Virus record (IMG/VR): IMGVR_UViG_3300020472_002474 | Strand: one strand, 5' to 3' | Length of the DNA stretch: 20,000 bases | Source: an uncultured virus (IMG/VR IMGVR_UViG_3300020472_002474) | Taxonomy: Duplodnaviria > Heunggongvirae > Uroviricota > Caudoviricetes | Shown here: positions 1 through 19,096 of the stretch, in pieces | Layout: every line of letters starts with the position of its first letter | Numbering within the stretch: the stretch's first letter is position 1 | Program-made: the position numbers and the translations under genes | The notes under the pieces: model-generated | Told to the model about the DNA's origin: nothing | The model's database searches: none | Seen by the model: only the letters and a program-made list of their open reading frames with translations

Positions 1-3000
1 TTAACAAGCTTAATATTGAGATAGCAATTAAAATCAGGTGCACCTCCTGTTCCGTTGGCAAAACCTAATAGCTTCCATGCTAAACTAAAGGTAATATTTT
101 CCGAAGCACCTTGTGCTGCGTAAAAATCGGTTGTGGTTAATCTTGGTGAAAATAATTGTAACATTAACTGACCACCAAACATTCCATTTACGAGCTCATC
201 TGGTGCTATCCACCTATGCTCGCTAGGTCTTATAAAACAACATACTGGCCTAAAAAGTTGGGTGTTTGCTGTCGTACTCGAAAAGTATCCACTTGATTGT
301 TGGTATTGTGCATGTCCATCCGCTAAACTCTGTGGGGAAAACTGAGTTGCCTTTGGATATGGTGTGTGGTTGGTGTTTTGTTCATCCGAAAGTGTATTAT
401 TAATTGCAGCTGTATCACGACCATCATAAACAATAGTATGAAAAGAACCAGCATTCGTAATACCTTGTGGGTTGAGATTTCCTATAACTGCACTCCCACT
501 CCAATTTTGGTCACCATTACCGAATTGGTCATTATCTCTACCCCACGAACTGAAGTCTGATGATATAGCTGCTGCACTTTTTACGGCTGATGGACTATTG
601 GTATCTCCCCAAGACTCAACAGGCTTCTTTCCACTATTAGTTCCCGATATAATATCGGCAGTACCACCACCAGCAACCACATCAGAAAAATATCCTGTTT
701 CTGCTGATATATCACCTTTTATTTCAGCTCCAGCTGATGATAATCTGAAATTTGATGAACTTATTTGTAGTGCGTCATCCCCACCATCCACATCAAACTT
801 AATAAAATTAGTTCCACTATCATCAGCCTTTAGTAGAAAATTACCTGCCCCATCAACACGCATTCCTGAATTTGTTGTTGCTATCGTGCTCGTATCGGCT
901 AATGTACCGATTTCAAAGAATCCAGTAGATGTTCCGTCAAGTGTTATGTTTCCATCTGCTAACGATATGGAATGTCCAGCACTATCTATTACTAAATCAT
1001 TTGTATTGGCAGTTAAATTAAAGGTTGTTGACTTCATTTCTAATGAAGTTCCATCCTTCTTTATGAAGTTACTTGCGTTTCCATATGCTAAGAAATCACC
1101 AGTTCCATCCATATAGATACCAGCATTTGTTCCTGCTACACTTGTGTTTGGTGTAGAACCCATTGCTATCTTACCACTATTTGTGGCTGAATCAATAACG
1201 AGGGTTGCAGTGGTCAATGCGAATGTATTAGATTGTAATACAATAGCATTATTTGTGTATTGTATTCTATTACCACTAGCATTACCAACTAAAAACTCAT
1301 TTCCACTACCACTTACGAAGAAACCAGTTCCACTTGTTGCACTTGTTGGTGGAGTTGCTCCTAATGAAATTACACCACCATTGGATGATGATACTCTTAA
1401 TGTGCTTGTATTTAAATCAAAATTTTGAGCTTTAATTACCAATCCACTATTAAATTGTATGTAATTATTAGCGTCATGTTTCATTAATAATAAACCATCA
1501 CCTTGTGCATACAAACCACTATCCCCATCAGTTACATCGGTTACGGAATCTAAACTACCAACAATAAGTTTTGCTCCCGCATCATCCAATTGAAGCTTCG
1601 GTGTGGTGCTTTCGAGTTGTAGAGTATCAGTAACCAAATCAAAAGTGCTTGTCTTGATGTTAAGTTTAGATGTTCCATCGATAATCTGACGTTTGATGAA
1701 ATTATTACTATCTTGTTGTAAATTAAACTCACCACTACCACTAAAAAATATACCATTTGTTGATAAATCAGAAAGTGAGGCGGATGTACCACCCATTGCA
1801 AACATTTGAGTTTGAGTATCTATATCAACCTTCGCGGTATCAATTACTAATTCACTGGCCTTTAATTGTAAGGTGTTACTTGAAAATCTTAAAAAGTTAT
1901 TTGCATCACCTTGAAAGTTAAAATCACCACTACCACTTAGTAATACACCATTAGAAGTTAATGTTGTTGGTATGGTTGAACCCATTGCTATAGTTCCACC
2001 ACCAGATGATGAAACTCTTAAATTACTTGATAATAAATCAAACTTTTCTGACTGTATTTCGAAATTACTATTACCACCCTTAATAAAATTGGCCCCATCC
2101 TCAACAAAACTAAATTTACCAGTTCCATCTAAATAAATTCCAGTTGCACCATGTGTTACCGCACTTCCATCAGTTCCCAAACCTATCATACCACTATTAA
2201 CAGCACTATCCATATAAATTGTAGTGGCATCAAGAGTAAAGTTGTCGGCGGCTATATCAAAATTATTATTTCCACCTATTATGTAATTGTTAGCATCTTC
2301 CTTAAAACTAAAATGACCACTACTATTTAAAAATATACCTTCTGAACCATGAACTAAGGTAGAGGTTGCATTAGAACCGAGTCTTATCTTAGAAGTATCG
2401 ATTGCTAATGTGGTTGATCCCGATAATGAAAAATTCTGTGAACCTATTTTAAAGTCCGTTCCATCTCTCTTAATATAATTTAAACTATTATATTCGAAAT
2501 TAAACTCACCACTACCACTTAAAAATATACCAGCTCCACTCAAATCTGCCAATGATGCTGAAGTTGCTCCAAGTGCTATCATTCCACCATGTTCGGTTGT
2601 AATGTCTACCGTACTTGTATCTATTACCAAATCATCAGTTCTAACTGCTAAATTATTTGATGATGCATCAAAGTACATAAATGAATTACCACTTGTTGCA
2701 GTTCCAACTCTGAAATTACCAGCACCATCAATCCAAGCTCCTGCACCTGCTGTTTTAGAACTTGCCGAACCTAATGCTATTTTATTATTTGCTGCAGTAG
2801 ATGCATCTCGACCAGATATCGTAAGACCTTGTGTGGCTATTTCTAACGATACGGTTTTTACATCTAATGCTGGTGTTGCACCTGCGTCAAATTTAAAGTA
2901 ATTTGTACTATTTTTGTATAAATGAAATTCTGCATTACCACCATCGTTTGCTATAAGTATACCTTCTTGTGCAGGATTTGCAATTGTAGGTGAACCGATT

Positions 3001-6000
3001 TGTAAAAATGAATCATTAGCATCTGATTGTAATGTCATCCTATAACCAGTTTTGTTACCAAATCCAATTGTTTGTGTATCTCCACCTACCATCGTGATAC
3101 CACCATTAGCACTTGTATTGTATCCCAAACTCATTGATTTGTGAGTGCTACTTACCTCAAAATCAGGTGCATCTACTTCAATACCATCACCCGCGGTTAT
3201 ATTTACATTTGATGCCGTTAAGTTGAAGTTTGCTGCTGCTATATCAATGTTAGTTCCGTCAAATCTTATGTATTCAGTTCCACTTCCAACATGAAATTTT
3301 GTAGTAGTTAATGCTCTCTCTAATATAAATCCTTGTTCGTTGTTTGCTACGGCTCCTGCAAAAGATTCACTAACACCAGCCTTTAATACTTGTTGAGTTG
3401 CTGATGCACTTATAATAAGATTATCACTCAAAGCAGGTGCAGAACCAAATTGTGCGTAACCTACATTACCACTTCCTAATAGTTTTACATTTCCATTATT
3501 TAAACTCATTGATTTGTGAGTTGATGAGATTTGTAAATCTGTTGTTCCTGCTGCTAAATCAAGTTGTGTGGTTTTTATATCTACACCAGTTCCACCATCA
3601 AATATAAAGTAGTTTGTAGCACTTTTAACAAATTCAGCTTGAGGATTTGTAGCATCCATACCGATAAGGATACCTGCAGTTCCACTTCCTTCTTGAGAAA
3701 AACTTGTTTTACTACCCATAGCCATAAAGTTATCAGTAGAACCACCTTGTATCGTAACTGAGTTGGAAGTTCCAACTGTAATCTTACCATTTGCCCCATC
3801 AAGTAAAATCTTACCTTCTCCAATACTCATAGATGCATTTGTAGAACTTATTTCAATATTACTTGCATCCAATTCAAAATCTTCAGTTTTAATATCTACT
3901 CCATCATCAAAGATAAAGTAGTTTGTGGCACTTTTAACAAATTCTGCCTGTGGGTTAGTTGAATCCATACCAATTAATATTCCAGCAGTTCCACTTCCTT
4001 CGTGAGAAAAACTTGTTTTACTACCCATAGTAATGAATTGGTCTGTTCCATCAGTTTTTATAGTAATAGGATTACTTGAACCTACTGTAATGAATGGTGT
4101 TGATGATCCTTGTAATACAATTTTACCTTCACCAAGGCTCATTGATGAATGTGTAGATGATAATTCTAAATTACTAGCATCTAATTCAAAAGTTGTAGTT
4201 TTTATATCTACACCAGTTCCACCATCGAAAATAAAATAATTAGTGGCACTCTTAACAAATTCCGCTTGTGGGTTGGTTGCATCCATTCCAATTAAAATAC
4301 CTGCAGTTCCACTTCCCTCATTGGAGAAACTACCTTTACTACCCATTGCTATAAAGTTATCTGTATTTCCACCTTGAATTGTTATAGCATTTGAAGAACC
4401 AACTGTAATTTTAGTATTTGTTCCGTCTAATGTAACTTGTCCACCAAGACTCATAGACTTATGTGCTGAGGATATCTGTAAATCACCACTATTGGCATCT
4501 AATTCAAAATTAACTGTTTTTATATCAAGTCCATCATCGAATATAAAGTATTCACTTGCATTTTTTACGAATTCCGCCTGTGGATTACTTCCATCCATTC
4601 CAATCAAGATACCAGCGGTTCCACTACCTTCGTGTGTAAATGAAGTCTTACTGCCCATTGTTAGGAATTGGTCTGTTCCATCAGTCTTAATTGTTATTGC
4701 ATTACTCGAACCTATCGTGATAGATGGTGATGCTGCACCTTGTATTGTAATTTTATTACCACCGAGACTCATTGATTTATGAGCTGCTGATATTTGTAAA
4801 TCATCCGTGTTTGCTGCTAATTCAAACGCTCTTGTTTTTACAGTTAAGGCGTTATCATCAAATTTTAGAAAATCTGTTCCATCACCAACCACAAATTCTG
4901 CGTCTGTATTATTATTTGCTAACCAAAAACCTTCAGTAGTATCACTTACACTTGTTTTTCCACTTCTTATTGCACCTTGTGTGGATGAACCTGTAATGAA
5001 TATTGCCTTTGTGGATGTGGCACCTATTCTACCGACAGCTTGACTTGAATTTGGTGATTGAAAGAATATATCTCCATCACCCAACGACATAGATTTGTGT
5101 GTTGATGAGATTTGAATATCACCACTACCTGCACTTAATTCAAAAGTATTTGGTTGTATGGATACATTTCCACTCGCGTCGTTTGAGATAAAGAAATTAC
5201 CACCACCAACTTTCCAAGCTCCTGTTGTATACCAATAATTGTTATTATTTATGAAAATTCCATCATTAGTAGATTGAACATCAGTTCCAATTACAACTTG
5301 ATTTGATGCATCTGTTCTAACATGAAGTTTTCCAGTAATTGAACCAGTTTGTGCTGTTATTCCACCTTGTAGAAATACATTTTCTGCAAATAATCCAAAA
5401 CCAGGATTTGTTTCACCATATAACAATCCACTACTCAATCCACTTAAATCACCAAGTCTTGTTTTTAATTCTACATCAAATACTGCACTTCCAGTTCTTT
5501 CGACTATATCAATATAAGGTGTTGTGGTATCATTTGGATTTGCGTTTAATCTTATAAATCCAGTTCCAACTTTTCCTGTTGATACAATTACTTGACCTTG
5601 TGAGTATGTTTGTGCAGAAGATGCAGCATCACCAACTGAACCACTTGTTGTTTCTAATGAACCACTATATCCACGAACAACAAACAACTTACCCATAAAG
5701 TTTGTATCACTTGAAGGAACATCCCTTGATGCACTTTGTATCAACATATATTCTGTTTGAAATCCTGTATCGGATACTTTTTTAGCAGATATAACTTCGT
5801 TTGCTACAAACCCACCAACATTTGCAACACTCATAGTTGTATCTGAAGCGGCTATATCTGTGGAACTCGATATAATAGTTGAATTTGCTACATATAATTG
5901 ACCACCTACGGCGTTTACAGATTCTTTTTCAAATACCGTAGTGGCTAATGTTCCCCTAACCGTAACCTTTTCAAATTCTGCTTCACCATTATTGGCTGAA

Positions 6001-9000
6001 GTTATTCTCCAACCTTGAACACCACTAGCAAAATCTGATGTTTGTATAATTCCTGCAGAATCTATTACTATATTTTCACTTGAAATTTGTGTTGTGCTTA
6101 TTGACCAACTTGCTATCTTGTTATAATCACTACCAAAATGGGCTATTTCATCTGCTCCTGCAGTTCCACTTCCATCATATATTACTAAACCATATTGGTC
6201 ACCACCTGTTGGATCTATTTCACCAATCCTTACCCTTAATCCATCTGATGCATCATAAACATCAATTCTACTTGTTGATGAATCAATATCTAATCTATCA
6301 GTATCGAGTTTAAATGCTGGTGTTTTAATATCAATACCTGCAGGTGTCATTCTTAGGTATTGATTATTACCAGTTCCAACCGTATAATCAAATTCAGGAT
6401 TAGTAGCATCCATTCCCATTATTAATCCAGCAGTAGTTGTTTGGTCGAATGTAGTTTTTCCACCAAACTTCAACATCTTATCAGTTCCGTCTGCGTGTAA
6501 AACTATTGCTCCACCACTTGAGTTAGGATCACCAATACTCATACTTGCGTGTTGTGATGATACTTCTAAATTAGATGCACTTACCTCAAGATTTTTAGTT
6601 CTTATATCAAGACCATCTGTGGAATCCCATCTTAAATATTCATCACCACTTTTTGCCATTTCAAATTTTGGTACAGCCGCATCCATACCGAGAATAATAC
6701 CAACCGTAGATTTATCATAATGACTAAAGGAAGTTTTACTTCCCATAACTATGAATTGGTCTGTACCATCGGTTTTAATGGTAATAGGATTACTATCTCC
6801 TATCTGAAAATATGGTGATGATGCACCAACTAATAAAATTTTACCCTCACCTAAACTCATTGATGCATGAGTGGAAGATAAATCTAAGTTAGTTGTACTT
6901 AATTCAAATGCGGTTGTTTTTATGTCTATTCCGTCATCGAATATAAAATAATCACTTGAATTTTTTACAAATTCTGCTTGTGGATTACTTCCATCCATTC
7001 CAATCAAGATACCAGCAGTTCCACTTCCTTCGTGAGAAAAACTTGTTTTACTACCCATCGTGATAAAATTATCAGTTCCACCACCTTGAATAGTAACCTT
7101 GTTTGATGTTCCCACCGTCATTTTACCATTGGCACCATCAAGTAAGATTTTACCTTCTCCAATACTCATAGATGCATGGGTAGATGAAATCTCTATGTTC
7201 GTAGCATCTAATTCAAGACCTTCAGAAAGTTTTATATCAAAATTAGTTCCATCAAAGGATAAGTAATTTGTTGCACTTCCTGCCAATTCAAATTTAGTAG
7301 TTCCACCATCAGTACCAAAAATAACACCCGCAGTAGATTGGTCAAAGTGTGAAAATGAAGTTTTACTTCCAACCGTTAAAAATCTATCAGTTCCGTCATC
7401 TTTTAATGTTATTGCGTTTGCGGCACCGATTGTAATGAATGAAGTAGATGCTCCAACCATTTTAATCTTACCTTCACCTAAACTCATACTTGCGTGTGTA
7501 GATGATAACTCTATATTTGTAGCATCTAATTCAAGTCCTTCGGTAAGTTTTACATCAAAATTAGTACCATCAAAAGAAAGATAATTTGTAGCGTTTCCAG
7601 CTATTTCAAATTTGGTAGTTCCACTATCAGTTCCTAAAATTACTCCTGCAGTGGATTGGTCGAAATGTGAGAATGATGTTTTACTACCAATAACCAAAAA
7701 TCTATCAGTTCCATCATCCTTTAGAGTAATTGCATTAGCTGCACCAACTGAGAGTGTTGAAGTTGAACCACCTACCATCTTAATTTTACCATCCCCAATA
7801 CTCATACTTGCGTGTGTGGATGATATTTCTATATTGGTGGCATCTAACTCAAATCCCTCAGATAGTTTTATATCAAAATTTGTTCCATCGAAAGAAAAAT
7901 AATTTGCAGAATTTTTAGCTATTTCAAGTTTAGGAACGGTAGAATCCATTCCAATTATTATACCCTCAGTTGATTGGTCAAAATGACTAAAGGAAGTCTT
8001 ACTTCCCATAGTTATAAAGTTATCTGTATTTCCACCTTGAATTGTTACTTTGTTTGCGGAACCAACTTCCACTCGTGAATTACCACCATCGAGTAATATG
8101 TTAGCTGCTGCTCCTGGCACTCCACCTAAACTCATCGATGCATGTGCAGATGAGAGTTGTATATTTGAGGCCGCCATTTCAAATGTATTGGTATCTATAT
8201 CAACCGCGGCTCCTGTGAATTTGAAATGACCACTCGAACCCACAAACGATACTCTTGGTGCACTTCCAGCGTTATTGTATCCTAAAAATACCCCACTATG
8301 TCCATATCCAACCGTACCACCAGTTTGACCGATTGCTAAATATGGATTTGCATCTGATCCTTGGGCTAACCATTGTCTATTTGTTCCCAATGACATTGAA
8401 GCTTGTCCAGAGGATAGTTGAAATCCTGTTGCCGTAATGTTGAGTTCTGTTACATTGATATCAATATCAGAACCAGTAATATTAAAATTACCATTTTCAA
8501 ATAATATTCCACCATCTGCATCACCAAAACGGAAATTACCATCTCCATCCATAAAAATACCACTACCAGTAGATAAACTAATAAAGTCTGCATCAGGTCC
8601 CATTCTAAATGTTGGTGTTCCTTCACCCTCTATGATAATTTTACCTTTTGGATAAGTTGGAGAGTGTCCAAGACTCATACTTGCCTGTGTGGTAGAGACT
8701 TGAATGGTTGATGCTGATATTTCAAGTTTCTGCGATGCTATATCTAAGTTACCATGTTGTAATTTTATAAAATCGGTTGCATCACCAATATGAAATTCAG
8801 GATTTGCATTATTATTTGCGAACCAAAAACCTTCGGTTGTATCACTTACACTTGATTTACCAGTTCTAATATATCCCTTTGAAGAATTTCCAAATATTTC
8901 AATTTGTTTTGAACTATTAGAACCAACAAAAATTTTACTATTTGCTCCGTCAAGTAAAATATTACCTTCACCCAATGACATACTTGCATTTAAGGAACTT

Positions 9001-12000
9001 ATTTCAATATTGGTTGCATCTAATTCAAGACCTTGAGAAAGTTTTATGTCGAAATTACTACCATCGAATGATAAGTAATTTGTAGCACTTGCTACAAGTT
9101 CCATTTTAGGTACAGTTGAATCCATACCAACGATAATACCAGCTGTAGATTGGTCGAAATGAGTAAAGGAAGTTTTACTTCCCATAGTCATAAAATTATC
9201 AGTTCCACCACCTTGTATGGTAACTTTATTTGCTGAACCAATTGTTATTTTTGCATTTGCCCCATCGAATACAATCGTCCCATCATTTAATGACATTGAT
9301 TTATGACCAGATGATATTTGTAAATCACCAGTATTTGCATCAAGTTCAAATGTTGTGGTGTCTATGTCAAGACCAGCCCCATCAAATTTTATATGACCAC
9401 CAGTTCCTACTGCTGAAAACTTTGGTGTTGAACCACCTGATACTCCAAGAAATACTCCTGTTGCACCATAGGCTTTACTTGCGAGAGCTACACTTGGTTG
9501 TAAACTGATATATGGATTATTACTATTACCTCTTATAACAACCTCATCAGAAGTTCCCAAAGACATTGAGGCTTGTGTTGAAGAAATTCGAATAGAACCA
9601 GCGTCATCATGAAATCCAGAAGTTGTTAAATTCCAACCTGAAATATTTTGACTACCCGAACCAATAAATAAAAGGTTTGAATAATTGTTATTTGAATCCT
9701 TTTGTATTATTTGTAAACCATAATCATTAATTGCATGTAAATCAGTAGTATCACTTAATCCACCGAGTCTAACTACCTTTATAGCTCCATTATCTATATC
9801 TTCATCTTTTCTATATACGGAAAAACCTTCTTGAATATTCTGAGTGTTGTCATTGACAGATGACATATAAACTCTCGTAAAGTCTTGATATGCAGCTGAA
9901 CCACTTATAGCCTTAGAAATCCAACTTCCACTTATTGCCCAACCTGCAATTTGATTTGAATTTCCTAATCGGAATAAAGTATCACCACCTGAAATTCCTT
10001 TAATACCCCAATTAGTAGCTGTGGTATGATATAATTCTAACTTATTATTACTATCTTCTTGAACTGTGATAATCGGTGTTGAGTTATCTGCATCAAGTAT
10101 AATACCCTTATTGGAAGCGTTAACACTTGAAAGTGTATCACCTATTATGTCCCAATTTGCAATTCTACCACTTGTAGCAGTTATCTTTCCTTCTATATTT
10201 GCTGCACTTGCAGTTATCCGTCCATCTGCAGAAACTTTAAATTGACTTGATGAAATAAAAGATACTGGATCATCTGTTGCTGCAGAAGATGATATTCTCC
10301 AATGAGGTGGATATGCCAAAGATGTACTTTCTATCTGTGCTCCACCTATCAATCCAGCAGATGATGTTATCTTACCTTCGAATACTGCTCCACTTGCAAA
10401 TAATACACCACTCGCACTTACAGAAAAGTTTGGCCCAAATTTAACATAATATCTTCCTGCTGTTGCAGTATCACCTTGTTCGGGTGTAAAATCAATATAG
10501 TATTCATCTCGTGTTATATCAAATGCTGCTGCTGTATCACTACCAGGACCTTTAGTAGAGTGATAAAGGGCCGCTCCATCAGCGTCAAGTGTAGCATTAC
10601 TACCACTCAACATACCATCTACGATTTTCCAATTACCAATGTTACCAGCAGTAGCGGTAATTGTTCCACTCATATTTACATCACCACTTGAAGATAAATG
10701 AAAATTACTTGAACTTATCTCTACATTACCAAGAGCACCACTAACGAATTGTGTTCCTTCATTACCTACAAAAAATGCGTCCGCTCTAATATCAAGCTCA
10801 CTTGGATCAGTTCTAAATTTTAAATAACTTCCACTATTACCAACTAATTCTAATCCTACACCTTTATAATCATCTCCACTATCAGGTAGAACAGAACCAC
10901 TAAACATCATAAATCCTGAATTTTCACCTGTTGCGTTAGAAGCACTTTTAAATCCTTGATATCCCATTGACCTAATAAATGCAGAATTAACACCAGCCAT
11001 TTCAACACCACTTGCAAGTGCACTTCCAATAAACATTGAACCACTAAGTATGTTATCAGTTCCACTTATGTTTATATTTGGTCCTGTAAAGTCTATTGGA
11101 TTTGTAAATACCGTTGTATCTGCTATATTATTATTTACATCATAAAACTCAACTAAAAATCTAATTCTATCAGGTCGTTCTAATAATGGGGGAACTGGTG
11201 CTGTTATTGTGACGAAGTCAGGATGAAATGCTGTATCGGTTGCCGCTTTTACTTGAATATCTGATACATGCCATACACCAGACGGAGCTTTAAATTGAAT
11301 TACTCCTGTTCCTGTATTGTCAGCTAAAAAACTTCCCTCTACAAGACCAAAATCATACTCTGATACTCCAGTTGGAAAATCAGGTAAGTTTAATTTTTCA
11401 TCACCCCAATGATTACCTTCATTGTTTTCCGTGTTAAATGCACTACCACTTGTATAAACTATAAATTCTGCATTTGAAGTTAAATTTCCATCCACATCTT
11501 TTTTATCAGTTTTTATACCATATACTTTTGCAGAAAAATTATATAAATTTCCTTTTATAAAATCAACTGAAGTCTTATTCTGAACTCTAACGGAATCTCC
11601 GTGTTCTAAATTAGAACCAGAAATTACCATAGAATCTACTTTTTTAGCAGAACTAAATGTAAATGTTCCAGTTCCACCGTTACCATTTTGTCCTTCGTGT
11701 ATTTCCCAATAATTATTTATTCTACCAACATCAATAAAATAACCTATATTGGTATTTAAAGTAGTTTCGTTTTTATCAAATAGAACCTGTGCACTTTCTA
11801 TTGGAGAATCATATATTAGTTCAAAATCTCCGAGAGAACCTTCACTTTTTGCATAAATTTTAACCTTGTGAACATCACCACTAAATGTTTTCATATCTTG
11901 AATTGTGATATCGGCAAATGATGTAAAGTTTATTGATGAAGTTGTTTGTGTAGGTAATTCTACATAACTTGCTGTAATTGCACTTGTTGTTGATAATGGT

Positions 12001-12983
12001 GCAGGTACTAAAGTTGGTGGGGAAGTTCTATCATCATTGACATAAAAAATATCCTTTGGAACAAAAGTTTTATCATTCAACACATTCATCACAGAAGAAG
12101 TATAAATTGTTGGAACTGAATGATATGATTCAAGTGTAAATTGTGAAGTATCTACTTGTGGATTATTAATTGTAATTGGTTCTCCAACAAACTTACTATC
12201 TACTGACGATGAACCACTTAGGTTTATATAAAAGTCATCCATTACAGGTGACATCGTTTCAACTAACTTACCCTTAGAACCTATAGCACCACTTTTACCA
12301 CTTAATTTGGTTAATGGTTTATTTTCCTCTATGATAGTTTGTTTTGCCTTATCCTTGAAATCTTTATTAGGATAGGTTGCATTTGAAACTCCACCAATGG
12401 TTGCATTTTCAACAGGAACTTCAGGTGAAAGTCCAGCACGAGGGACACCATCTCCTGCTAAATTAACAGAAGTAGAAGAACCACTTGGAACTTGAACAAA
12501 TTCTTTAAATAATTCTGTTACCTTTACGGTTGGTGCTCTGTGAAATAAGATTGGTTGGGTATTTACTCCCATACCATTTATTGTTATCGGTTTAGACCAT
12601 CTTGCATTATAAATACCCTGCCATTCAGCTGGAACATTTACGTTTTCAGGATTTAATTCACCAACTACATATAATGTATAAGGTCCAGGAGTAACATCAT
12701 CATAAACCTCAATAGAAACTCTACGAGCATCACCTTCCAAGTGCCCCATTATAGGTTCTACATATATTACTTCATCTGTTTGGTCATGAACTAACTCAAT
12801 TTTTATATCAACACCAGGTTTTAAATTTACTGAACCTGCTATTAAAAAACTACTTTTACCTTGAGTTAATACATCAGGACATTCAAGTATTCTAAAGTAA
12901 CTATCTAAAATATCTTGGGATATTTGTAATACATCGAGGTTTTTTAGTCCTAAATATTCTGATTTACGTTTTGGAACTGCCAA
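1..12983 (-). CDS. Giant repeat-rich virion structural protein, putative tail fibre/adhesin (at least 4327 aa, 3' end outside the window)
   Basis: TTG start at 12983-12981 with GGAG 6 nt upstream (ctcc at 12990-12993). N-terminus reads MAVPKRKSEYLGLKNLDVLQISQDILDSYFRILECPDVLTQGKSSFLIAGS. Manual translation stayed in one frame at ~10300 (LAYPPHWRISSSAATDDPVSFISSSQFKVSADG), 5200-6300 and 1-660 (ending ANGTGGAPDFNCYLNIKLV at the window edge). All repeat spacings are multiples of 3. The ORF track has no long minus-strand ORF here, which an internal in-frame stop would have produced. The tail-fibre call is inferred from composition and motifs (GxIxxWxI, SGxxGWRIxxxxxGEAEFxxVxVRG). Confidence 0.9.
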   Translation of the reverse strand, partial: MAVPKRKSEYLGLKNLDVLQISQDILDSYFRILECPDVLTQGKSSFLIAGSVNLKPGVDIKIELVHDQTDEVIYVEPIMGHLEGDARRVSIEVYDDVTPGPYTLYVVGELNPENVNVPAEWQGIYNARWSKPITINGMGVNTQPILFHRAPTVKVTELFKEFVQVPSGSSTSVNLAGDGVPRAGLSPEVPVENATIGGVSNATYPNKDFKDKAKQTIIEENKPLTKLSGKSGAIGSKGKLVETMSPVMDDFYINLSGSSSVDSKFVGEPITINNPQVDTSQFTLESYHSVPTIYTSSVMNVLNDKTFVPKDIFYVNDDRTSPPTLVPAPLSTTSAITASYVELPTQTTSSINFTSFADITIQDMKTFSGDVHKVKIYAKSEGSLGDFELIYDSPIESAQVLFDKNETTLNTNIGYFIDVGRINNYWEIHEGQNGNGGTGTFTFSSAKKVDSMVISGSNLEHGDSVRVQNKTSVDFIKGNLYNFSAKVYGIKTDKKDVDGNLTSNAEFIVYTSGSAFNTENNEGNHWGDEKLNLPDFPTGVSEYDFGLVEGSFLADNTGTGVIQFKAPSGVWHVSDIQVKAATDTAFHPDFVTITAPVPPLLERPDRIRFLVEFYDVNNNIADTTVFTNPIDFTGPNINISGTDNILSGSMFIGSALASGVEMAGVNSAFIRSMGYQGFKSASNATGENSGFMMFSGSVLPDSGDDYKGVGLELVGNSGSYLKFRTDPSELDIRADAFFVGNEGTQFVSGALGNVEISSSNFHLSSSGDVNMSGTITATAGNIGNWKIVDGMLSGSNATLDADGAALYHSTKGPGSDTAAAFDITRDEYYIDFTPEQGDTATAGRYYVKFGPNFSVSASGVLFASGAVFEGKITSSAGLIGGAQIESTSLAYPPHWRISSSAATDDPVSFISSSQFKVSADGRITASAANIEGKITATSGRIANWDIIGDTLSSVNASNKGIILDADNSTPIITVQEDSNNKLELYHTTATNWGIKGISGGDTLFRLGNSNQIAGWAISGSWISKAISGSAAYQDFTRVYMSSVNDNTQNIQEGFSVYRKDEDIDNGAIKVVRLGGLSDTTDLHAINDYGLQIIQKDSNNNYSNLLFIGSGSQNISGWNLTTSGFHDDAGSIRISSTQASMSLGTSDEVVIRGNSNNPYISLQPSVALASKAYGATGVFLGVSGGSTPKFSAVGTGGHIKFDGAGLDIDTTTFELDANTGDLQISSGHKSMSLNDGTIVFDGANAKITIGSANKVTIQGGGTDNFMTMGSKTSFTHFDQSTAGIIVGMDSTVPKMELVASATNYLSFDGSNFDIKLSQGLELDATNIEISSLNASMSLGEGNILLDGANSKIFVGSNSSKQIEIFGNSSKGYIRTGKSSVSDTTEGFWFANNNANPEFHIGDATDFIKLQHGNLDIASQKLEISASTIQVSTTQASMSLGHSPTYPKGKIIIEGEGTPTFRMGPDADFISLSTGSGIFMDGDGNFRFGDADGGILFENGNFNITGSDIDINVTELNITATGFQLSSGQASMSLGTNRQWLAQGSDANPYLAIGQTGGTVGYGHSGVFLGYNNAGSAPRVSFVGSSGHFKFTGAAVDIDTNTFEMAASNIQLSSAHASMSLGGVPGAAANILLDGGNSRVEVGSANKVTIQGGNTDNFITMGSKTSFSHFDQSTEGIIIGMDSTVPKLEIAKNSANYFSFDGTNFDIKLSEGFELDATNIEISSTHASMSIGDGKIKMVGGSTSTLSVGAANAITLKDDGTDRFLVIGSKTSFSHFDQSTAGVILGTDSGTTKFEIAGNATNYLSFDGTNFDVKLTEGLELDATNIELSSTHASMSLGEGKIKMVGASTSFITIGAANAITLKDDGTDRFLTVGSKTSFSHFDQSTAGVIFGTDGGTTKFELAGSATNYLSFDGTNFDIKLSEGLELDATNIEISSTHASMSIGEGKILLDGANGKMTVGTSNKVTIQGGGTDNFITMGSKTSFSHEGSGTAGILIGMDGSNPQAEFVKNSSDYFIFDDGIDIKTTAFELSTTNLDLSSTHASMSLGEGKILLVGASSPYFQIGDSNPITIKTDGTDQFIVMGSKTSFSHYDKSTVGIILGMDAAVPKFEMAKSGDEYLRWDSTDGLDIRTKNLEVSASNLEVSSQHASMSIGDPNSSGGAIVLHADGTDKMLKFGGKTTFDQTTTAGLIMGMDATNPEFDYTVGTGNNQYLRMTPAGIDIKTPAFKLDTDRLDIDSSTSRIDVYDASDGLRVRIGEIDPTGGDQYGLVIYDGSGTAGADEIAHFGSDYNKIASWSISTTQISSENIVIDSAGIIQTSDFASGVQGWRITSANNGEAEFEKVTVRGTLATTVFEKESVNAVGGQLYVANSTIISSSTDIAASDTTMSVANVGGFVANEVISAKKVSDTGFQTEYMLIQSASRDVPSSDTNFMGKLFVVRGYSGSLETTSGSVGDAASSAQTYSQGQVIVSTGKVGTGFIRLNANPNDTTTPYIDIVERTGSAVFDVELKTRLGDLSGLSSGLLYGETNPGFGLFAENVFLQGGITAQTGSITGKLHVRTDASNQVVIGTDVQSTNDGIFINNNNYWYTTGAWKVGGGNFFISNDASGNVSIQPNTFELSAGSGDIQISSTHKSMSLGDGDIFFQSPNSSQAVGRIGATSTKAIFITGSSTQGAIRSGKTSVSDTTEGFWLANNNTDAEFVVGDGTDFLKFDDNALTVKTRAFELAANTDDLQISAAHKSMSLGGNKITIQGAASPSITIGSSNAITIKTDGTDQFLTMGSKTSFTHEGSGTAGILIGMDGSNPQAEFVKNASEYFIFDDGLDIKTVNFELDANSGDLQISSAHKSMSLGGQVTLDGTNTKITVGSSNAITIQGGNTDNFIAMGSKGSFSNEGSGTAGILIGMDATNPQAEFVKSATNYFIFDGGTGVDIKTTTFELDASNLELSSTHSSMSLGEGKIVLQGSSTPFITVGSSNPITIKTDGTDQFITMGSKTSFSHEGSGTAGILIGMDSTNPQAEFVKSATNYFIFDDGVDIKTEDFELDASNIEISSTNASMSIGEGKILLDGANGKITVGTSNSVTIQGGSTDNFMAMGSKTSFSQEGSGTAGILIGMDATNPQAEFVKSATNYFIFDGGTGVDIKTTQLDLAAGTTDLQISSTHKSMSLNNGNVKLLGSGNVGYAQFGSAPALSDNLIISASATQQVLKAGVSESFAGAVANNEQGFILERALTTTKFHVGSGTEYIRFDGTNIDIAAANFNLTASNVNITAGDGIEVDAPDFEVSSTHKSMSLGYNTSANGGITMVGGDTQTIGFGNKTGYRMTLQSDANDSFLQIGSPTIANPAQEGILIANDGGNAEFHLYKNSTNYFKFDAGATPALDVKTVSLEIATQGLTISGRDASTAANNKIALGSASSKTAGAGAWIDGAGNFRVGTATSGNSFMYFDASSNNLAVRTDDLVIDTSTVDITTEHGGMIALGATSASLADLSGAGIFLSGSGEFNFEYNSLNYIKRDGTDFKIGSQNFSLSGSTTLAIDTSKIRLGSNATSTLVHGSEGIFLNSSGHFSFKEDANNYIIGGNNNFDIAADNFTLDATTIYMDSAVNSGMIGLGTDGSAVTHGATGIYLDGTGKFSFVEDGANFIKGGNSNFEIQSEKFDLLSSNLRVSSSGGGTIAMGSTIPTTLTSNGVLLSGSGDFNFQGDANNFLRFSSNTLQLKASELVIDTAKVDIDTQTQMFAMGGTSASLSDLSTNGIFFSGSGEFNLQQDSNNFIKRQIIDGTSKLNIKTSTFDLVTDTLQLESTTPKLQLDDAGAKLIVGSLDSVTDVTDGDSGLYAQGDGLLLMKHDANNYIQFNSGLVIKAQNFDLNTSTLRVSSSNGGVISLGATPPTSATSGTGFFVSGSGNEFLVGNASGNRIQYTNNAIVLQSNTFALTTATLVIDSATNSGKIAMGSTPNTSVAGTNAGIYMDGTGDFLAYGNASNFIKKDGTSLEMKSTTFNLTANTNDLVIDSAGHSISLADGNITLDGTSTGFFEIGTLADTSTIATTNSGMRVDGAGNFLLKADDSGTNFIKFDVDGGDDALQISSSNFRLSSAGAEIKGDISAETGYFSDVVAGGGTADIISGTNSGKKPVESWGDTNSPSAVKSAAAISSDFSSWGRDNDQFGNGDQNWSGSAVIGNLNPQGITNAGSFHTIVYDGRDTAAINNTLSDEQNTNHTPYPKATQFSPQSLADGHAQYQQSSGYFSSTTANTQLFRPVCCFIRPSEHRWIAPDELVNGMFGGQLMLQLFSPRLTTTDFYAAQGASENITFSLAWKLLGFANGTGGAPDFNCYLNIKLV
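700..2900 (-). repeat. Intragenic repeat array C: about 10 diverged units of ~62-85 aa
   Basis: A recurrent G[IVFM][FYL][LMFV][SD]GxGxF motif lies at about 2730, 2520, 2330, 2130, 1940, 1745, 1510, 1315, 1110 and 855 (e.g. GIFLSGSGEF, GIYLDGTGKF, GVLLSGSGDF, GIYMDGTGDF). It is usually preceded by GxIA[LM]G and followed by N[FY]I. Confidence 0.75.
2900..5170 (-). repeat. Intragenic repeat array B: 7 units of ~104-125 aa, same family as array A
   Basis: The SMS[LI] marker occurs at about 5086, 4768, 4450, 4138, 3826, 3505 and 3130 (spacings 318, 318, 312, 312, 321, 375). The core units read MGSKxSF[ST]xEGSGTAGILIGMDxxNPQAEFVK[SN]AxxYFIFDxGxDIKT. Confidence 0.9.
6300..9600 (-). repeat. Intragenic repeat array A: 11 units of ~87-110 aa
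   Basis: The marker SSx[HQN]xSMS[LIF]G occurs at about 9562, 9292, 8977, 8674, 8392, 8131, 7801, 7483, 7165, 6856 and 6538. Spacings are 261-330 bp, all multiples of 3. Most units carry KTSF[ST]HFDQSTxGxIxGxD. Confidence 0.9.
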
Positions 12984-13010
12984 TATTATCTCCGAATAGA
13001 TTTATTCTTA

Positions 13011-13046
13011 AATAAATATCAGATTAATAAATTCTTACTATTTATT
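13011..13046. promoter_or_regulatory. Inverted pair of TATTTATT motifs in the divergent intergenic region (candidate back-to-back phage promoters or operator)
   Basis: aataaata at 13011-13018 and tatttatt at 13039-13046 form an 8-bp perfect inverted repeat with a 20-nt spacer. Each copy reads TATTTATT on the coding strand about 28 nt before a start (12983 and 13075). Function is inferred. Confidence 0.45.
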
Positions 13047-13074
13047 GTCGGTATAAAGTATGGAGAATATCAGT

Positions 13075-13248
13075 ATGAAAAAAGAAAAAGTATCTTTCAC
13101 GATAGATAAAGATTTAATTAATTGGTTTAGATTGCACACAAAGGACGAACATACTACTATGTCCGCCCTTATTAATCAATACATATTAAATTTAAAACGA
13201 GAACGAGAAGGTCGTTCCATTCCAAAGAATGTTTTACATTCTAATTAA
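13075..13248 (+). CDS. Ribbon-helix-helix (CopG/BrnA-antitoxin-like) DNA-binding protein
   Basis: MKKEKVSFTIDKDLINWFRLHTKDEHTTMSALINQYIL matches the RHH pattern: alternating beta strand KVSFTID, helix A, turn, helix B SALIN. GGAG at 13062-13065 favours ATG 13075 over the track's ATG 13060. The gene overlaps the convergent SbcDC gene by 8 bp. Confidence 0.75.
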   Translation: MKKEKVSFTIDKDLINWFRLHTKDEHTTMSALINQYILNLKREREGRSIPKNVLHSN

Positions 13249-16200
13249 AATCCACATTACTAAATCCATCAATCTTTGATATTTCAAGAAGTGAATCTAC
13301 GGTATCTCTCATTGATTCAATATGAGAAACCACAAACGCGAATTGGAATTGAGATTTTAAATATTGAAACAACATATAGATAGAATTTAGATTATCAGAA
13401 TCCATATTACCAAATCCCTCATCTATGGCTAAGAAGTTAGCTCGTGGTAAATTACAAACATTAATCAAACCAACCCTCATTGCAAGACTTGATATAAATC
13501 GTTCCATACCACTTGATAATTCTAAAGGCCATACATTGTCGTCATCATAGGCTAAATATGTATTGATATTCTTACCATCCATTTCCAACACAATACCAAA
13601 ATCTACCATTTGAGCTAATATATCATTAACCTCACCCTCGATTGTTGGTAAGGCCTTTTCTATTAACTCGTAAGGAATACCATCTCGTTTAATTGCATCA
13701 AGATAGTATTTATAGGCTTCGTGTTCTGTTTCTAAATCTTGAACTCGTTTCATTGTTTCCATAATACTTTTCTTCTTGGTAGCGTTAATCTGTATCTCAC
13801 CATGAATAGTTTGTATCTTCTTATCTATTGTATCGACTTGATAATCCAAATCATCAATAGAATTTTTAAGACTTTCTATTTCTTCTTCTATTTGTTTATT
13901 ATAAACAATATCATTCTTACTCTCGTGATACTTTTCAATCTTATCCTCTTGAACTGCTATCTGAGCTAAAGTATGTTTCTTTCTCTCTGTCAATAATACT
14001 TCTTCTGATTCTAATTTATTCTGATTAATTTCGACATTCTTTAATTCTTCTATGGTGTTGTCGTAATCTAATTTATCATTTTCTACATTTCCAAGTTCAT
14101 CAATTTTCTTTACAATTGAATCTAACGAACCAACATATTGACCAGCCAATACTTTATCTTCATTTAGTTTTTCTTTGGTGTCTATGGCGTCTAATGTAAA
14201 TGGATTACTCATACAAAAATCACAATCTTCATCCCATTCTAAATTACCCAACTTATCAATCTTATCCAATTTAGCACGAACCTCTATTTTTAGCTTATCA
14301 ATCTCAATTTGACTTTCCTTTCGTTGAACTTCTAATTCAGAAAGGTTGGTGTATAGTTGATTTATATTTGATTCGGTATAAGTTTGTATTCTATTTTTAA
14401 ATTCTGTAAGTTTAGTTTTGTTTTCTTCTTTTGTGGATTCAAGTGAACCTAATCTTGTATCTATTGAATCAAGAGAATTTTCAGATTCTAACCTATCGTT
14501 TTCTAACTTTTTAATATTAGTAACTGATTCATCAACAGCTCTTAATTTTTTTGTTAATTTAAATGTTTGAGTTGTTAGTTCTTTCTTCCTATCGGTAAGA
14601 CTTTTCTTTTGACTTCTTAAATCTACTTGTACTTCCTTATATTGAGTATCACTTTTATCAATATCAGCTAAATCAACATCATAATCTGTTTTGTTAAAGT
14701 CTCTCAACAACGCAGTTATATCAGATATATTATCATTAGCACTTGTGTAAAGTCTATCAAAGATTCCCATACCCATAAACTGAGCCAATAAATCTTTTCT
14801 TTCCTTTTGAGTCTTGTCTATGAATACCGTAGAATTGTTTTGTAGAGAAAGTGCAGTTAGAACAAAATCCTCATAAGAACCAATAACCTTTTTTATAGCG
14901 TAGTTTGTAGTTCTTCGTTGGTCACCATTTAGTGAAACAATATCACCTGCATCATCTAACATCCAAAACTCTACATTGACTTTGACGTGTCCATTACTTA
15001 ATCGTTTACCTTTTCTTTCAATAAAATAATCTGTTTCGTTTATTTCAAAATTTACTTTACAACTAAAACTACCTTTTTTATTATTGATAACTCTGTCGGC
15101 TTTAAATGCTCTTGCTGATGTATCAAACAAACAGAATGAAAGGGAATCTAATAATGCTGATTTACCACTTGCGTTTGGTGCGAACATTCCAATAATACCA
15201 TTTAGTTTTGTGAAGTCTACTACATTATCTTCTCCGTAACTGAACATATTAGACCATTCAAATTTCTTTATCTTCCAAAACACATTACGAGATATTTCTT
15301 CAGCTGGTAAGTTTCTATTTAAGTCATCATTTATTTCTTTAATTTTTAATAATGTTTTTTCATCTACGATATGATTTCTACCAATGTAATCCTCGATTAA
15401 CTCATATTGATATTCAGAATTTTGAACATCTCCAACATCAACTATTTGACCATCACGAACTCTTTCTGTCAACCTATCTGTTCGATTAACAGCTATCTCC
15501 TTTATACCATATTTGGTCTGTATTACACTCAAGGCCTTCTTTAATTGAACCGAGTCGGTATCAGATACCCTTACTCTCAACCTGGCCTTTTTTGGCATAT
15601 CTTTTACATCAGGAAATTTACCGTTTTTAATGTCTATTGTGTAATAACCATAATCATTTGGAACTTGAATATATGTAGATTTTCTCTTAGGAACATCCCA
15701 TAGTAAATAGCCGTGGTCTAATCCCTCTCCATGATTCTGTTGAACCAAAGAACCACAATATGATATAGTTTCCTCTTTATTAAGGTGTTGTCTCTTGTGA
15801 ATATCACCGAGTAATCCCATATCGTATCCATCGAACTTTGTAATTTTCACATCAGAAGGTAAATTGAATCCTAAATCAGTTTCACATTTATCTACCGTTC
15901 CATGAAACAATACAATCTTAGTATCACCTTCAACTTGGTCTGATGTGATAAAATCTTTCTCATCTGTCCAACAATCCCATACAACAAACTGAACATCAGC
16001 ACAGGTATAAATCCCACTATCTTTTAAATAATGTAAATTAGGATGATTTAAATTTTCGACTATTGGAGTCAAAACATCCATACGAGAACGATTGTTTAGA
16101 TTACAATCGTGATTACCAGCAATAATTATTGTGGGAACTATATCAGATAGATTTTTAAATAACCTTGAGAGTTGGTCAACCAATTCAGGTGACATCTCAG

Positions 16201-16390
16201 TTTTTGAATGTGCTATATCACCACCGATATAAGCAACAGCATTGTCTTTGTTTTCTTTGACCTTTTCATAAAGACGATTGAATACTTCTTCGTATTCTGT
16301 GTGTCGTTTAAGATTTCTGATTTGAATATCAGATATGTGGTGGATGTGTTTAAGTTTTTGAAAAGGAACTTTTACAACATTTTTTATCAA
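13241..16390 (-). CDS. sbcD-sbcC: Fused Mre11/SbcD-like nuclease and Rad50/SbcC-like ATPase (gp47-gp46-like recombination exonuclease), 1049 aa
   Basis: N-terminal metallophosphoesterase motifs HISDIQ, GGDIAH, IAGNHD, LFHG and LGDIHK. These are followed by Walker A APNASGKS, Q-loop LSLQNN, a coiled coil with the Zn-hook CDFC (14213-14224), signature LSSGMERF, Walker B/D-loop LAIDEGFGNMD and H-loop VVSH. Confidence 0.93.
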   Translation of the reverse strand: MIKNVVKVPFQKLKHIHHISDIQIRNLKRHTEYEEVFNRLYEKVKENKDNAVAYIGGDIAHSKTEMSPELVDQLSRLFKNLSDIVPTIIIAGNHDCNLNNRSRMDVLTPIVENLNHPNLHYLKDSGIYTCADVQFVVWDCWTDEKDFITSDQVEGDTKIVLFHGTVDKCETDLGFNLPSDVKITKFDGYDMGLLGDIHKRQHLNKEETISYCGSLVQQNHGEGLDHGYLLWDVPKRKSTYIQVPNDYGYYTIDIKNGKFPDVKDMPKKARLRVRVSDTDSVQLKKALSVIQTKYGIKEIAVNRTDRLTERVRDGQIVDVGDVQNSEYQYELIEDYIGRNHIVDEKTLLKIKEINDDLNRNLPAEEISRNVFWKIKKFEWSNMFSYGEDNVVDFTKLNGIIGMFAPNASGKSALLDSLSFCLFDTSARAFKADRVINNKKGSFSCKVNFEINETDYFIERKGKRLSNGHVKVNVEFWMLDDAGDIVSLNGDQRRTTNYAIKKVIGSYEDFVLTALSLQNNSTVFIDKTQKERKDLLAQFMGMGIFDRLYTSANDNISDITALLRDFNKTDYDVDLADIDKSDTQYKEVQVDLRSQKKSLTDRKKELTTQTFKLTKKLRAVDESVTNIKKLENDRLESENSLDSIDTRLGSLESTKEENKTKLTEFKNRIQTYTESNINQLYTNLSELEVQRKESQIEIDKLKIEVRAKLDKIDKLGNLEWDEDCDFCMSNPFTLDAIDTKEKLNEDKVLAGQYVGSLDSIVKKIDELGNVENDKLDYDNTIEELKNVEINQNKLESEEVLLTERKKHTLAQIAVQEDKIEKYHESKNDIVYNKQIEEEIESLKNSIDDLDYQVDTIDKKIQTIHGEIQINATKKKSIMETMKRVQDLETEHEAYKYYLDAIKRDGIPYELIEKALPTIEGEVNDILAQMVDFGIVLEMDGKNINTYLAYDDDNVWPLELSSGMERFISSLAMRVGLINVCNLPRANFLAIDEGFGNMDSDNLNSIYMLFQYLKSQFQFAFVVSHIESMRDTVDSLLEISKIDGFSNVDFN

Positions 16391-17903: not shown

Positions 17904-18689
17904 CTAATTAAATTTTAAATATCTTTTGTGGTGTTTTCTAATAAAATCTATCGTCATTTGTTCTTGATTAAACATACTATCAATTACATCGAATTTGTTA
18001 CGAGTTGAAAGAGGAGAAACTAAAACTTTATCTCCTAAAATTAAACCTCCATCGTATTCTGTCCAAAACAATTTCATTTGTTTCCAAAAAATATCCTTAT
18101 GACCTGATTTATTTCTATGTGGTATTTCAGTAACACTTTTCCAATCACTATCTTGCTCACATAACCAATCTAAAAATTTTGGATTACTTAAATCTTTTAA
18201 ATCTAAAAAATATATATTGGGTAAATGTGCATATATGTTTAATGGTATTTCATTAAAATTGTTCCATTTCCAAAACATTCCGTGTCCTCTAAACATCCAT
18301 TCGGTGCCATAAGGACTTCGAGGATTATGAAGTAATGACATAACTTGAAGGGCTGTTTTTGTAGCAAAAGTATTTTTACGAAATCCATTTTTAAAAATAT
18401 TTTTATTAAAAAACTCAAATACATTAGAACGATAAAAAAGACCTTCTTTGGATTGTAACTCCATCCACATTCCACTTTTCCATTTATCAAAAACATCTCT
18501 TAATAGGATTACATATTTTTTATTAGTTTTGAATTCTCCATCGTGTATTACTTCTCTAAAATGATGGACGAGTTTTTTTCTTGGTTGCTGTTGATGTGAA
18601 AGTTCTGATATTCCTAGCAATGACATTGTTCCTACTTTAGCACATTGTCCGATACCTATTCTTTTTGTTCCTACATTTTGAAATTCCAT
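17904..18689 (-). CDS. Putative sulfotransferase-fold protein
   Basis: CAKVGTMSL resembles the 5'-PSB loop (xPKxGTTS) and VILLRDVFDKWKSG resembles the 3'-PB motif (RDPxxRxxS). C-terminal IPHRNKS also fits. The sequence is divergent and the call rests on motifs only. Confidence 0.55.
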   Translation of the reverse strand: MEFQNVGTKRIGIGQCAKVGTMSLLGISELSHQQQPRKKLVHHFREVIHDGEFKTNKKYVILLRDVFDKWKSGMWMELQSKEGLFYRSNVFEFFNKNIFKNGFRKNTFATKTALQVMSLLHNPRSPYGTEWMFRGHGMFWKWNNFNEIPLNIYAHLPNIYFLDLKDLSNPKFLDWLCEQDSDWKSVTEIPHRNKSGHKDIFWKQMKLFWTEYDGGLILGDKVLVSPLSTRNKFDVIDSMFNQEQMTIDFIRKHHKRYLKFN

Positions 18690-18703: not shown

Positions 18704-19096
18704 TTATTTAAATTTTTTCTTCCACTTTTTTCTATATTCATTCTGTGCCCATCTTTCGGCCTGTTCCTCATAAAAGTTATCATCGTGAAAATCACCACCT
18801 TTTTCTACCGCGTCTTGTCCAGCCATAGTGTATTCACGTTCGTACTTTTTAGCTCCCATTTTATATCTCATTTTTGCGTGGTCAATTTCGTGTAAAACCG
18901 ATACAACAAATTCCTTGACATTAGGATAATTTCGTTTTAAATTTATAACATCATTTACCCAATCATAATCTGCCTCATTCTGTCCTTTGACTTTACCAAA
19001 TTTTACCTTAGAACGAAGGCCATATTTTTTGACCAACATACGGGCAGTATCTTGATAATCAATTCTTTCTACGAGTAGGTCTTTGAGTTTTAACAT
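18704..19096 (-). CDS. Small HExxH zincin-like putative metallopeptidase with an MLKLKDLLVE N-terminal leader
   Basis: VLHEIDH motif with a downstream YEEQAERWA helix that could supply a third Glu ligand (ImmA/IrrE-like spacing), preceded by a beta-hairpin-like EADYDWVNDVINL. Confidence 0.65.
   Translation of the reverse strand: MLKLKDLLVERIDYQDTARMLVKKYGLRSKVKFGKVKGQNEADYDWVNDVINLKRNYPNVKEFVVSVLHEIDHAKMRYKMGAKKYEREYTMAGQDAVEKGGDFHDDNFYEEQAERWAQNEYRKKWKKKFK

Follow-up and report, generated by a model that had tools for sequence, protein, structure and literature searches.

According to the account in PMC8326128, ICA domains drive trimer folding of the part of the protein that lies upstream of them and then cleave themselves off by a Ser-Lys dyad; among phages they are known from endosialidases, K5 lyases, the T5 L-shaped tail fibres and the GA-1 neck appendage. 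Two further described systems bear on the locus reported here. In the T5 protein pb4, residues 413-465 form the middle sheet of a 110-Å trimeric β-helix spike (PMC10038345), and in the host recognition cluster of pelagimyophages and cyanomyophages, as described in PMC7029224, hypervariable fibre genes stand ahead of glycosyltransferases and radical-SAM cassettes. We analysed a stretch of 20,000 nucleotides from an uncultured virus of the Caudoviricetes (IMG/VR record IMGVR_UViG_3300020472_002474; hereafter the window), most of which is taken up by one giant gene. Its product is read, with a probability of roughly two in three, as a homotrimeric virion fibre of an uncultured marine T4-like myovirus, most probably a host-binding tail fibre. 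Both the placement on the virion and the host are inferred.

A single frame extends beyond the window

On the minus strand, frame 3..12983 is free of stop codons over 4,327 codons and open at the left edge of the window. The presumed start codon is TTG (12981..12983, minus strand), with GGAG at 12990-12993, seven bases upstream. It is backed by the relatives, in which the aligned position opens M-A-[VIT]-x-[KR]-[KR] with an ATG or TTG codon; the window protein opens MAVPKRK. Ser, Gly, Thr, Asn and Asp are abundant in the protein and Cys is nearly absent; the calculated pI is 4.5.

A search with the last 238 window residues led to a cluster representative of 4,584 amino acids (aa), P0270, which differs at four residues besides the start codon. 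Its 90 % cluster has five full-length members, all exactly 4,584 aa, on ENA and JGI contigs of 28-140 kb, and these five assemblies differ from the window protein at 0-9 residues. P0274 (4,584 aa) is the same as the window protein over 4,326 residues, with 0 differences. In addition, metagenome contig L035 overlaps window positions 1-5078 at 99.72 % identity over 5,078 nt without gaps, and the stop codon was located in it. The window thus holds codons 1-4327 of 4584, with the remaining 257 codons and the stop beyond its left edge, and the full protein has 4,584 residues (482 kDa).

The initial annotation, made from the window's letters, had proposed a single minus-strand open reading frame (ORF) of at least 4327 codons. 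The ORF listing and the stop-free translation bear this out: no in-frame stop or frameshift appears in the window frame, the five assemblies agree in length, and the extension that it recommended ends at the stop found in L035 and in the near-identical proteins. The order of modules that it gave also holds, namely a non-repetitive N-terminus, a motif zone, array A, a unique domain, array B, array C and a distal non-repetitive part.

The protein ends in a variable tip followed by an S74 chaperone

A clue to the kind of protein lies outside the window and is seen in L035 and in the proteins that differ from the window by 0-9 residues. Peptidase_S74 (PF13884) matches aa 4479-4539 of P0270 with an E value of 8.3e-15 and 55.3 bits, against a cut-off of 22. 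A Ser-x4-Lys motif, SDERLK, stands at aa 4479-4484, and S-D-x-x-L-K is also present in relatives L012 and L014 and in a small S74 protein encoded next to the fibre gene. Compared with PDB, the C-terminal end gave a weak match to the ICA domain of MyRF (PDB 7dc3, E 0.0095). All PHROG matches of P0270 are confined to aa 4466-4578, the chaperone, and most of them are to tail-fibre families, as are those of the small neighbouring S74 protein. Within the part of the giant protein that lies inside the window, no Pfam, PHROG or NCBIfam family matches.

The chaperone is preceded by a non-repetitive distal tip domain (aa 4096-4478 of the full protein), the first 232 residues of which are encoded in the window (3..698, minus strand). 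This window part of the tip is matched in 0 of 14 relatives, has five relatives in the databases and belongs to no named family that could be found; ESM Atlas returned unnamed clusters only, the best at 0.83, which serves as a lead and nothing further. The ends of the relatives, read by eye, are equally diverse: two of eight carry an S74 end, two are glycine-rich and the others are different again. S74-like ends were found in 32 of the 150 listed representatives of the N-terminal family and in 28 of the 120 listed central-domain matches, many of these being fragments. The claim of a variable distal tip is therefore sustained by the absence of matches among the 14 relatives, the five database relatives and the differing ends.

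The putative shaft is made of long and short forms of one repeat

The protein contains three repeat arrays. Array A (aa 1134-2247; 6243..9584, minus strand) comprises 11 units, 87-110 aa long, that each begin with SS.H.SMS[LI]. Array B (aa 2626-3387; 2823..5183, minus strand), which follows a short linker, has seven units of 104-125 aa. Array C (aa 3402-4092; 708..2780, minus strand) consists of 10 units of 63-78 aa that are a shortened version of the 106-aa unit: in an hhalign comparison the 65-aa unit of array C proved homologous to the final 62 columns of the longer unit (probability 97.4 %, E 9.3e-12). The 65-aa unit gave no significant hhalign match to the motif zone at aa 641-1130 (probability 8.8 %).

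With a profile of fifteen 106-aa units, T5 pb4 was the only family of solved structure found at E <0.001, the alignment covering pb4 residues 418-462 (E 1.6e-4). This remote homology of the shaft repeat to the pb4 spike is all that points to a triple β-helix or β-prism upstream of the chaperone. No family in Pfam, PHROG or NCBIfam covers either the 106-aa or the 65-aa repeat, in agreement with the initial annotation, which recognised no named family in them. A profile match of the 65-aa unit to the designer Pizza β-propeller (E 1e-9) was rejected, since it amounts to ~6 bits per stretch and its total is inflated by the summing of identical repeats.

In a tree of 50 repeat units, the units grouped by their position in the array across genomes and not by genome; the window label requires 14 changes for its 15 rows. 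Local duplications are few, units 1721 and 1827 being an example. Since units at the same position in different genomes group together, length changes through the gain and loss of old units, and recent runaway expansion does not account for it. The tripeptide [ST][GAS]S occurs 50 times in P0270 against 32.9 ± 5.3 in shuffled sequences, a modest excess in which the repeats are not independent, and SGS occurs 20 times against 7 in shuffles.

The N-terminal region and the central domain are conserved

The N-terminal region (aa 1-640; 11064..12983, minus strand) is non-repetitive and has a mean column identity of 47 %. Its family comprises 1,693 representative clusters at E<=1e-3 and 845 at E<=1e-30. 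Among the 150 listed members, which range in length from 281 to 4,751 aa with one above 4,000 aa, the region lies at the very N-terminus in nearly all and after residue ~1000 in two. An AlphaFold2 model of the 640 residues, built from 61 sequences, reached a predicted local distance difference test score (pLDDT) of 86.4 and a predicted template modelling (TM) score of 0.78, and consists of consecutive β-sandwiches. When the whole model was compared with PDB by Foldseek, only multi-β-sandwich matches of low TM score (0.08-0.18) were obtained, and comparison with BFVD gave three uncharacterised phage relatives. The N-terminal profile had 0 matches among PDB sequences.

One sub-domain of the model (aa ~396-582; 11238..11798, minus strand) is a β-jelly roll resembling carbohydrate-binding modules (CBMs) in structural alignment. 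VIA-align, applied to model residues ~390-584, aligned it to the C-terminal domain of CBA120 TSP4 and to CBM4/16/61 modules with Z scores of 12.4-12.0 and root-mean-square deviations of 2.5-3.2 Å over 132-147 residues. The same fold is present in the Kp7 tail fibre gp52 (Z 11.2), a phi812 baseplate chain (Z 10.4) and a Pa193 baseplate/tail-fibre chain (Z 9.7). Sharing this fold does not establish sugar binding.

The N-terminal region passes into a motif zone (aa 641-1130; 9594..11063, minus strand) that contains two GxIxxWxI motifs, four of the looser form I[AS][GNS]W and two ISSS[NQ]F motifs; another ISSS[NQ]F occurs at aa 4074. The motif positions thus reproduce the succession of a non-repetitive N-terminus and a GxIxxWxI/ISSS[NQ]F zone described earlier. 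A unit of this zone (query aa ~676-805) matches many places in the giant ORFs of relatives G002 and G003.

Between arrays A and B lies the domain described as unique in the initial annotation (aa ~2248-2600; 5184..6242, minus strand), and it is the best-conserved part of the protein, with 66 % mean column identity among 12 sequences as against 47 % for the N-terminal region. It was found in at least 519 proteins at E<=1e-3, and the 120 listed among these are 49-81 % identical. No PDB, Pfam or PHROG match was obtained; a profile match to RNase T1 in PDB (E 0.25) was set aside as chance. In ESM Atlas the domain matched unnamed viral clusters at up to 0.96 and Phage_fiber_rpt only at 0.82, again only a lead. 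Its role may be that of a knee, a docking site or an enzyme.

The relatives point to a T4-like myovirus lineage

A search with the central domain yielded 17 IMG/VR loci from 23 pattern matches, and a search with the N-terminal region added one. In 14 of 16 loci (L001-L016) the giant ORF is directly preceded by an ORF of 1,027-1,068 aa, which is SbcD-SbcC-like where tested; the two exceptions are L008, which breaks off at its edge, and L014, whose N-terminus is different. The lengths of complete relatives are 1,757, 2,377, 3,375, 3,384, 3,583, 3,927 and 3,980 aa, another has 4,084 aa, and the longest relative frame, which is open, has 5,318 aa. The contigs that carry the relatives encode a T4 Gp23-type capsid protein in three of five cases and a tail sheath in three of five, and gp25- and gp6-like baseplate wedge genes are present as well. 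With lengths of 93-168 kb and CheckV completeness of 45-78 %, these contigs indicate genomes near 200 kb.

The nearest cultured phage is Microcystis phage Mel-JY01, whose SbcCD is 39 % identical and which carries the N-terminal region in a frame located two genes past SbcCD; the N-terminal profile matched Mel-JY01 and LR756508. In a 484-kb uncultured phage the N-terminal region forms a separate ORF of 725 aa. A megablast search of the window against 50,697 phage records returned nothing. Taken together, the primase/resolvase/SbcCD flank of the gene (see below) and the Gp23, sheath and baseplate wedge genes on the relatives' contigs agree with the phage origin first proposed for it, and the S74 end, the match to the pb4 spike and the phage context support its description as an unusually long phage fibre-like protein.

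Gene neighbourhood and a putative transcription unit

Within the window, the genes that flank the fibre gene encode a DnaG-like primase, a RusA/PDDEXK resolvase and a fused SbcD-SbcC of 1,049 aa (13241-16390, minus strand) that combines an SbcD metallophosphatase with an SbcC/Rad50-like ATPase. This fusion is conserved upstream of the fibre gene in the lineage. Directly after the SbcCD stop there is a terminator-like hairpin (13200..13218, minus strand; one found against 0.1 expected), the sequence of which is conserved in relatives. A promoter-like element, ATAAATA (13039..13045, minus strand), lies 62 nt upstream of the fibre start codon, and the exact heptamer is found at -57 to -64 in the loci of 9 of 12 relatives. 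By these sequence features, the hairpin would set the fibre gene apart as its own transcription unit.

A T4-type late promoter was considered and rejected, as TATAAATA occurs twice in the window against 3.65 expected, and a late-promoter regulon likewise, as ATAAATA precedes only eight gene starts in a 93-kb relative; from these counts, only a locally conserved promoter-like motif is claimed. In an oligo-dT RNA-seq run, small contigs fell in 19 of 30 bins; carry-over of DNA could produce them, and transcription is not claimed. Neither a tRNA nor an Rfam family was detected in a scan of the window.

Between SbcCD and the fibre gene, and divergent from the latter, lies a 62-aa ORF (13060..13248, plus strand) that overlaps the SbcCD stop by 8 nt and resembles ribbon-helix-helix (RHH) proteins. 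By tblastn it is present in 11 loci (9 distinct) at 56-94 % identity, and its Pfam matches are sub-threshold and of the RHH type only (DUF6364, BrnA antitoxin, RHH_1). A role in controlling the divergent fibre promoter is possible.

Immediately behind the fibre gene, beyond the window, L035 encodes the small S74 protein (5883-6392, 169 aa), in which 34 N-terminal residues lead into a complete Peptidase_S74 domain (64.6 bits) and then a lysine-rich tail. A stand-alone S74 protein is also found in G001 (61217-61681), and it stands beside the fibre gene even where the fibre has no S74 end. The 169-aa protein may serve as a chaperone in trans or may itself be a very short fibre. Next to it in L035, the products of 6394-7536 and 8720-10291 have Hint/intein-like C-terminal ends (PT-HINT and Hom_end_hint, below cut-off), and both match phrog_38766, 'virion structural protein'; the giant fibre ORF of L008 has an internal Hint-like stretch at aa ~2509-2535. 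These ends suggest self-processing of fibre-associated proteins. Farther downstream in L035 are genes for a methyltransferase, a twitch radical-SAM protein and glycosyltransferases, including a twitch-domain radical-SAM protein at 11969-14005 (NF033640, 301 bits) and a glycosyltransferase fused to a lectin-like Laminin_G_3 domain at 14844-15845.

Three other minus-strand ORFs lie at the far end of the window. The product of 19112-19768 is a membrane protein with a cyclic-nucleotide-binding domain that matches the Popeye-domain family POPDC1-3 (52.1 bits, cut-off 28.1). Those of 17904-18689 (261 aa) and 18704-19096 (130 aa) match no family in Pfam, PHROGs or NCBIfam; the latter has weak matches to zincin-like metallopeptidases (E 0.035-0.12).

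A model for the fibre, and the alternatives to it

In the mechanism that we propose, the gene would be transcribed as a unit of its own from the conserved promoter-like region behind the terminator-like hairpin. The S74 chaperone (aa 4479-4584) would join three chains and fold the β-structure that precedes it, and, judging by its family, would then cut itself off at Ser4479 with Lys4484, leaving a mature chain of 470 kDa. The 640-residue N-terminal string of β-sandwiches, with its CBM-like module, would hold the fibre on the particle. Behind it, 18 units of ~106 aa and 10 units of 65 aa, all built on the β-motif of the pb4 spike, would form a presumably trimeric shaft. Its length is set as single units, each old in its position, are gained or lost, which the unit tree and the relatives of 1,757-5,318 aa show. 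Receptor binding would fall to the tip domain (aa 4096-4478), which is rare and swappable.

Several observations weigh against this reading. No N-terminal profile match was found in the cultured marine myophages HTVC008M, Syn9, S-PM2, P-SSM2 and S-TIM5. A tblastn search of the 50,697 phage records found the N-terminus in one uncultured record and the central domain in none. The similarity to pb4 is confined to 41-49 residues of the repeat, the AlphaFold2 model of the central domain (12 sequences) is poor (pLDDT 44.5), and the N-terminal fold is a generic string of β-sandwiches and a CBM-like module in which Foldseek and VIA-align found no recognisable anchor. The gene adjoins replication and recombination genes and, in the nearest relative, lies ~25 kb from the baseplate wedge genes. 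Finally, since the account in PMC8326128 has S74 chaperones capping neck appendages as well, a position on the tail does not follow from this domain.

The last two points lead to the alternative that survives best, a trimeric virion fibre attached elsewhere than at the baseplate, on the neck, collar, whisker or head, which would serve for first contact or shielding while shorter baseplate proteins carried out committed binding. Besides the S74 cap that the GA-1 neck appendage shares (PMC8326128), it draws on one weak PHROG match of the S74 end, to the 'minor head protein' phrog_1786 (E 0.0074), and on the gene order in G001, where a separate ORF of 2,316 aa follows the baseplate wedge genes ~25 kb away. 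However, the S74 end and the neighbouring S74 protein match mostly tail-fibre PHROGs, receptor-binding proteins are characterised by a swappable distal tip, and the best phage matches of the CBM-like module are tailspike, tail-fibre and baseplate chains. We hold this placement to be unlikely.

A lesser chance is left to a protein that is not part of the virion, that is, a surface or secreted adhesin encoded by the phage, or a cellular surface protein, shown by the infected cell. The central domain does occur in 5 of 185,579 species genomes, and many glycosyltransferases are encoded downstream of the fibre gene. Yet all five genomes are metagenome-assembled genomes (MAGs) from unrelated bacterial and archaeal taxa, with no isolate among them. 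The four MAGs with enough flank all show the phage order primase-SbcCD-fibre, two of them with RusA as well, so the copies are binned phage contigs. This argues against a cellular surface protein, a best match to which the initial annotation had named as fatal to its reading. The relatives' contigs, moreover, carry capsid, sheath and baseplate genes, and the conserved MAVPKRK start, read by eye, has no evident signal peptide or membrane anchor. We consider a non-virion role improbable, with a chance of only a few in a hundred.

The frame could also be the product of mis-assembled arrays, a concern raised at the outset. At the DNA level no two repeat units exceed 80 % identity, and exact repeats reach 47 nt at most. 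Fourteen DNA runs, from at least six studies, hold at least 88 % of the words sampled from a 6.8-kb stretch across the arrays, and contigs from three of these runs, of three studies, cover 30 of 30 bins of window positions 1-13300 with 0 indels and 0 joints. Short-read contigs do break within the arrays, and no single contig of the three runs spans them, but with units so divergent, 4,584 aa in all five assemblies from ENA and JGI, not one indel or DNA joint in the three runs and positionally orthologous units in the relatives, a 13-kb frame created by collapse or expansion of the arrays or by fusion of two genes is very unlikely.

A further proposal, which goes beyond the host-binding tail fibre that we prefer, is tentative, and we doubt it ourselves. 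About 0.05 nm per residue is typical of T5 pb4 and of the T4 long tail fibres. Extrapolated at this rate, from the 110-Å pb4 spike (PMC10038345) and from the sizes of the T4 and T5 fibres, this single gene would specify a fibre of ~0.2 µm, longer than the tail of the phage, which could capture the host in two steps as a fishing line with a hinge or docking site at its centre and two binding sites. If so, the fibre would enlarge the capture radius in the dilute open ocean, the binding sites would be the swappable distal tip and the conserved CBM-like module near the particle, and the hinge or docking site in the central domain would let the fibre fold back and reel the host in. Such two-step capture would be something not described for T4-like phages.

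Members of the family abound in ocean metagenomes, and this very gene is nearly intact in the 14 DNA runs. Because Pfam, PHROG and NCBIfam cover the chaperone alone, the fibre genes are left 'hypothetical' or missed. Naming the modules (the β-sandwich/CBM string, the 106-aa and 65-aa units, the central domain, the tips and the S74 end) would expose to annotators the host-recognition gene of a widespread uncultured T4-like lineage. The tip domains would be natural probes for hosts, and the length series from 1,757 to 5,318 aa amounts to a natural experiment in the setting of fibre length.

Comparison with known fibres

The family is new and unannotated; its kind, the S74-capped trimeric phage fibre, is well known, and it is mainly the length that is unusual. 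A literature search, outside most subscription journals, found no paper on the fibre family. With K1F endosialidase, T5 pb1 and GA-1 gp12 the giant fibre shares the C-terminal S74 domain, above the Pfam cut-off, and the Ser-x4-Lys motif. By analogy with fibres capped by S74/ICA domains, trimer folding followed by self-cleavage would be expected, and a variable, presumably receptor-binding part lies just upstream of the cap; in sequence, by contrast, its N-terminus, central domain, repeats and tip match none of them. The T5 L-shaped tail fibre pb1 has 1,396 aa, so the giant fibre is about three times longer.

The likeness to T5 pb4 (PDB 7zlv, 8hre) lies in the 41-49-residue core of the 106-aa repeat, which aligns to residues 418-462. 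Whereas pb4 has 688 aa and a single spike after three fibronectin type III (FNIII) domains, the giant fibre has 18 long and 10 short copies of the motif, and no fn3 family was found when the entire giant protein was scanned with Pfam. Moreover, pb4 is not itself the receptor binder and has no S74 end.

The T4 long tail fibre, gp34-gp37, resembles the giant fibre in its T4-like myovirus context and in being long and segmented, with a conserved proximal and a variable distal part, but it is made of four polypeptides instead of one. The only sequence link to the gp34-37 families runs through the S74 end and certain 'distal subunit' PHROGs, and the part inside the window gives no PHROG match. Folding of the T4 long tail fibre uses gp57A and gp38, and the giant fibre has a built-in chaperone instead.

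Lastly, the layout downstream of the giant fibre gene in L035 resembles the host recognition cluster of pelagimyophages and cyanomyophages as outlined in PMC7029224. It differs in that the giant fibre gene follows primase-SbcCD and not VrlC, and in that the N-terminal profile is absent from HTVC008M and the four cyanomyophages.

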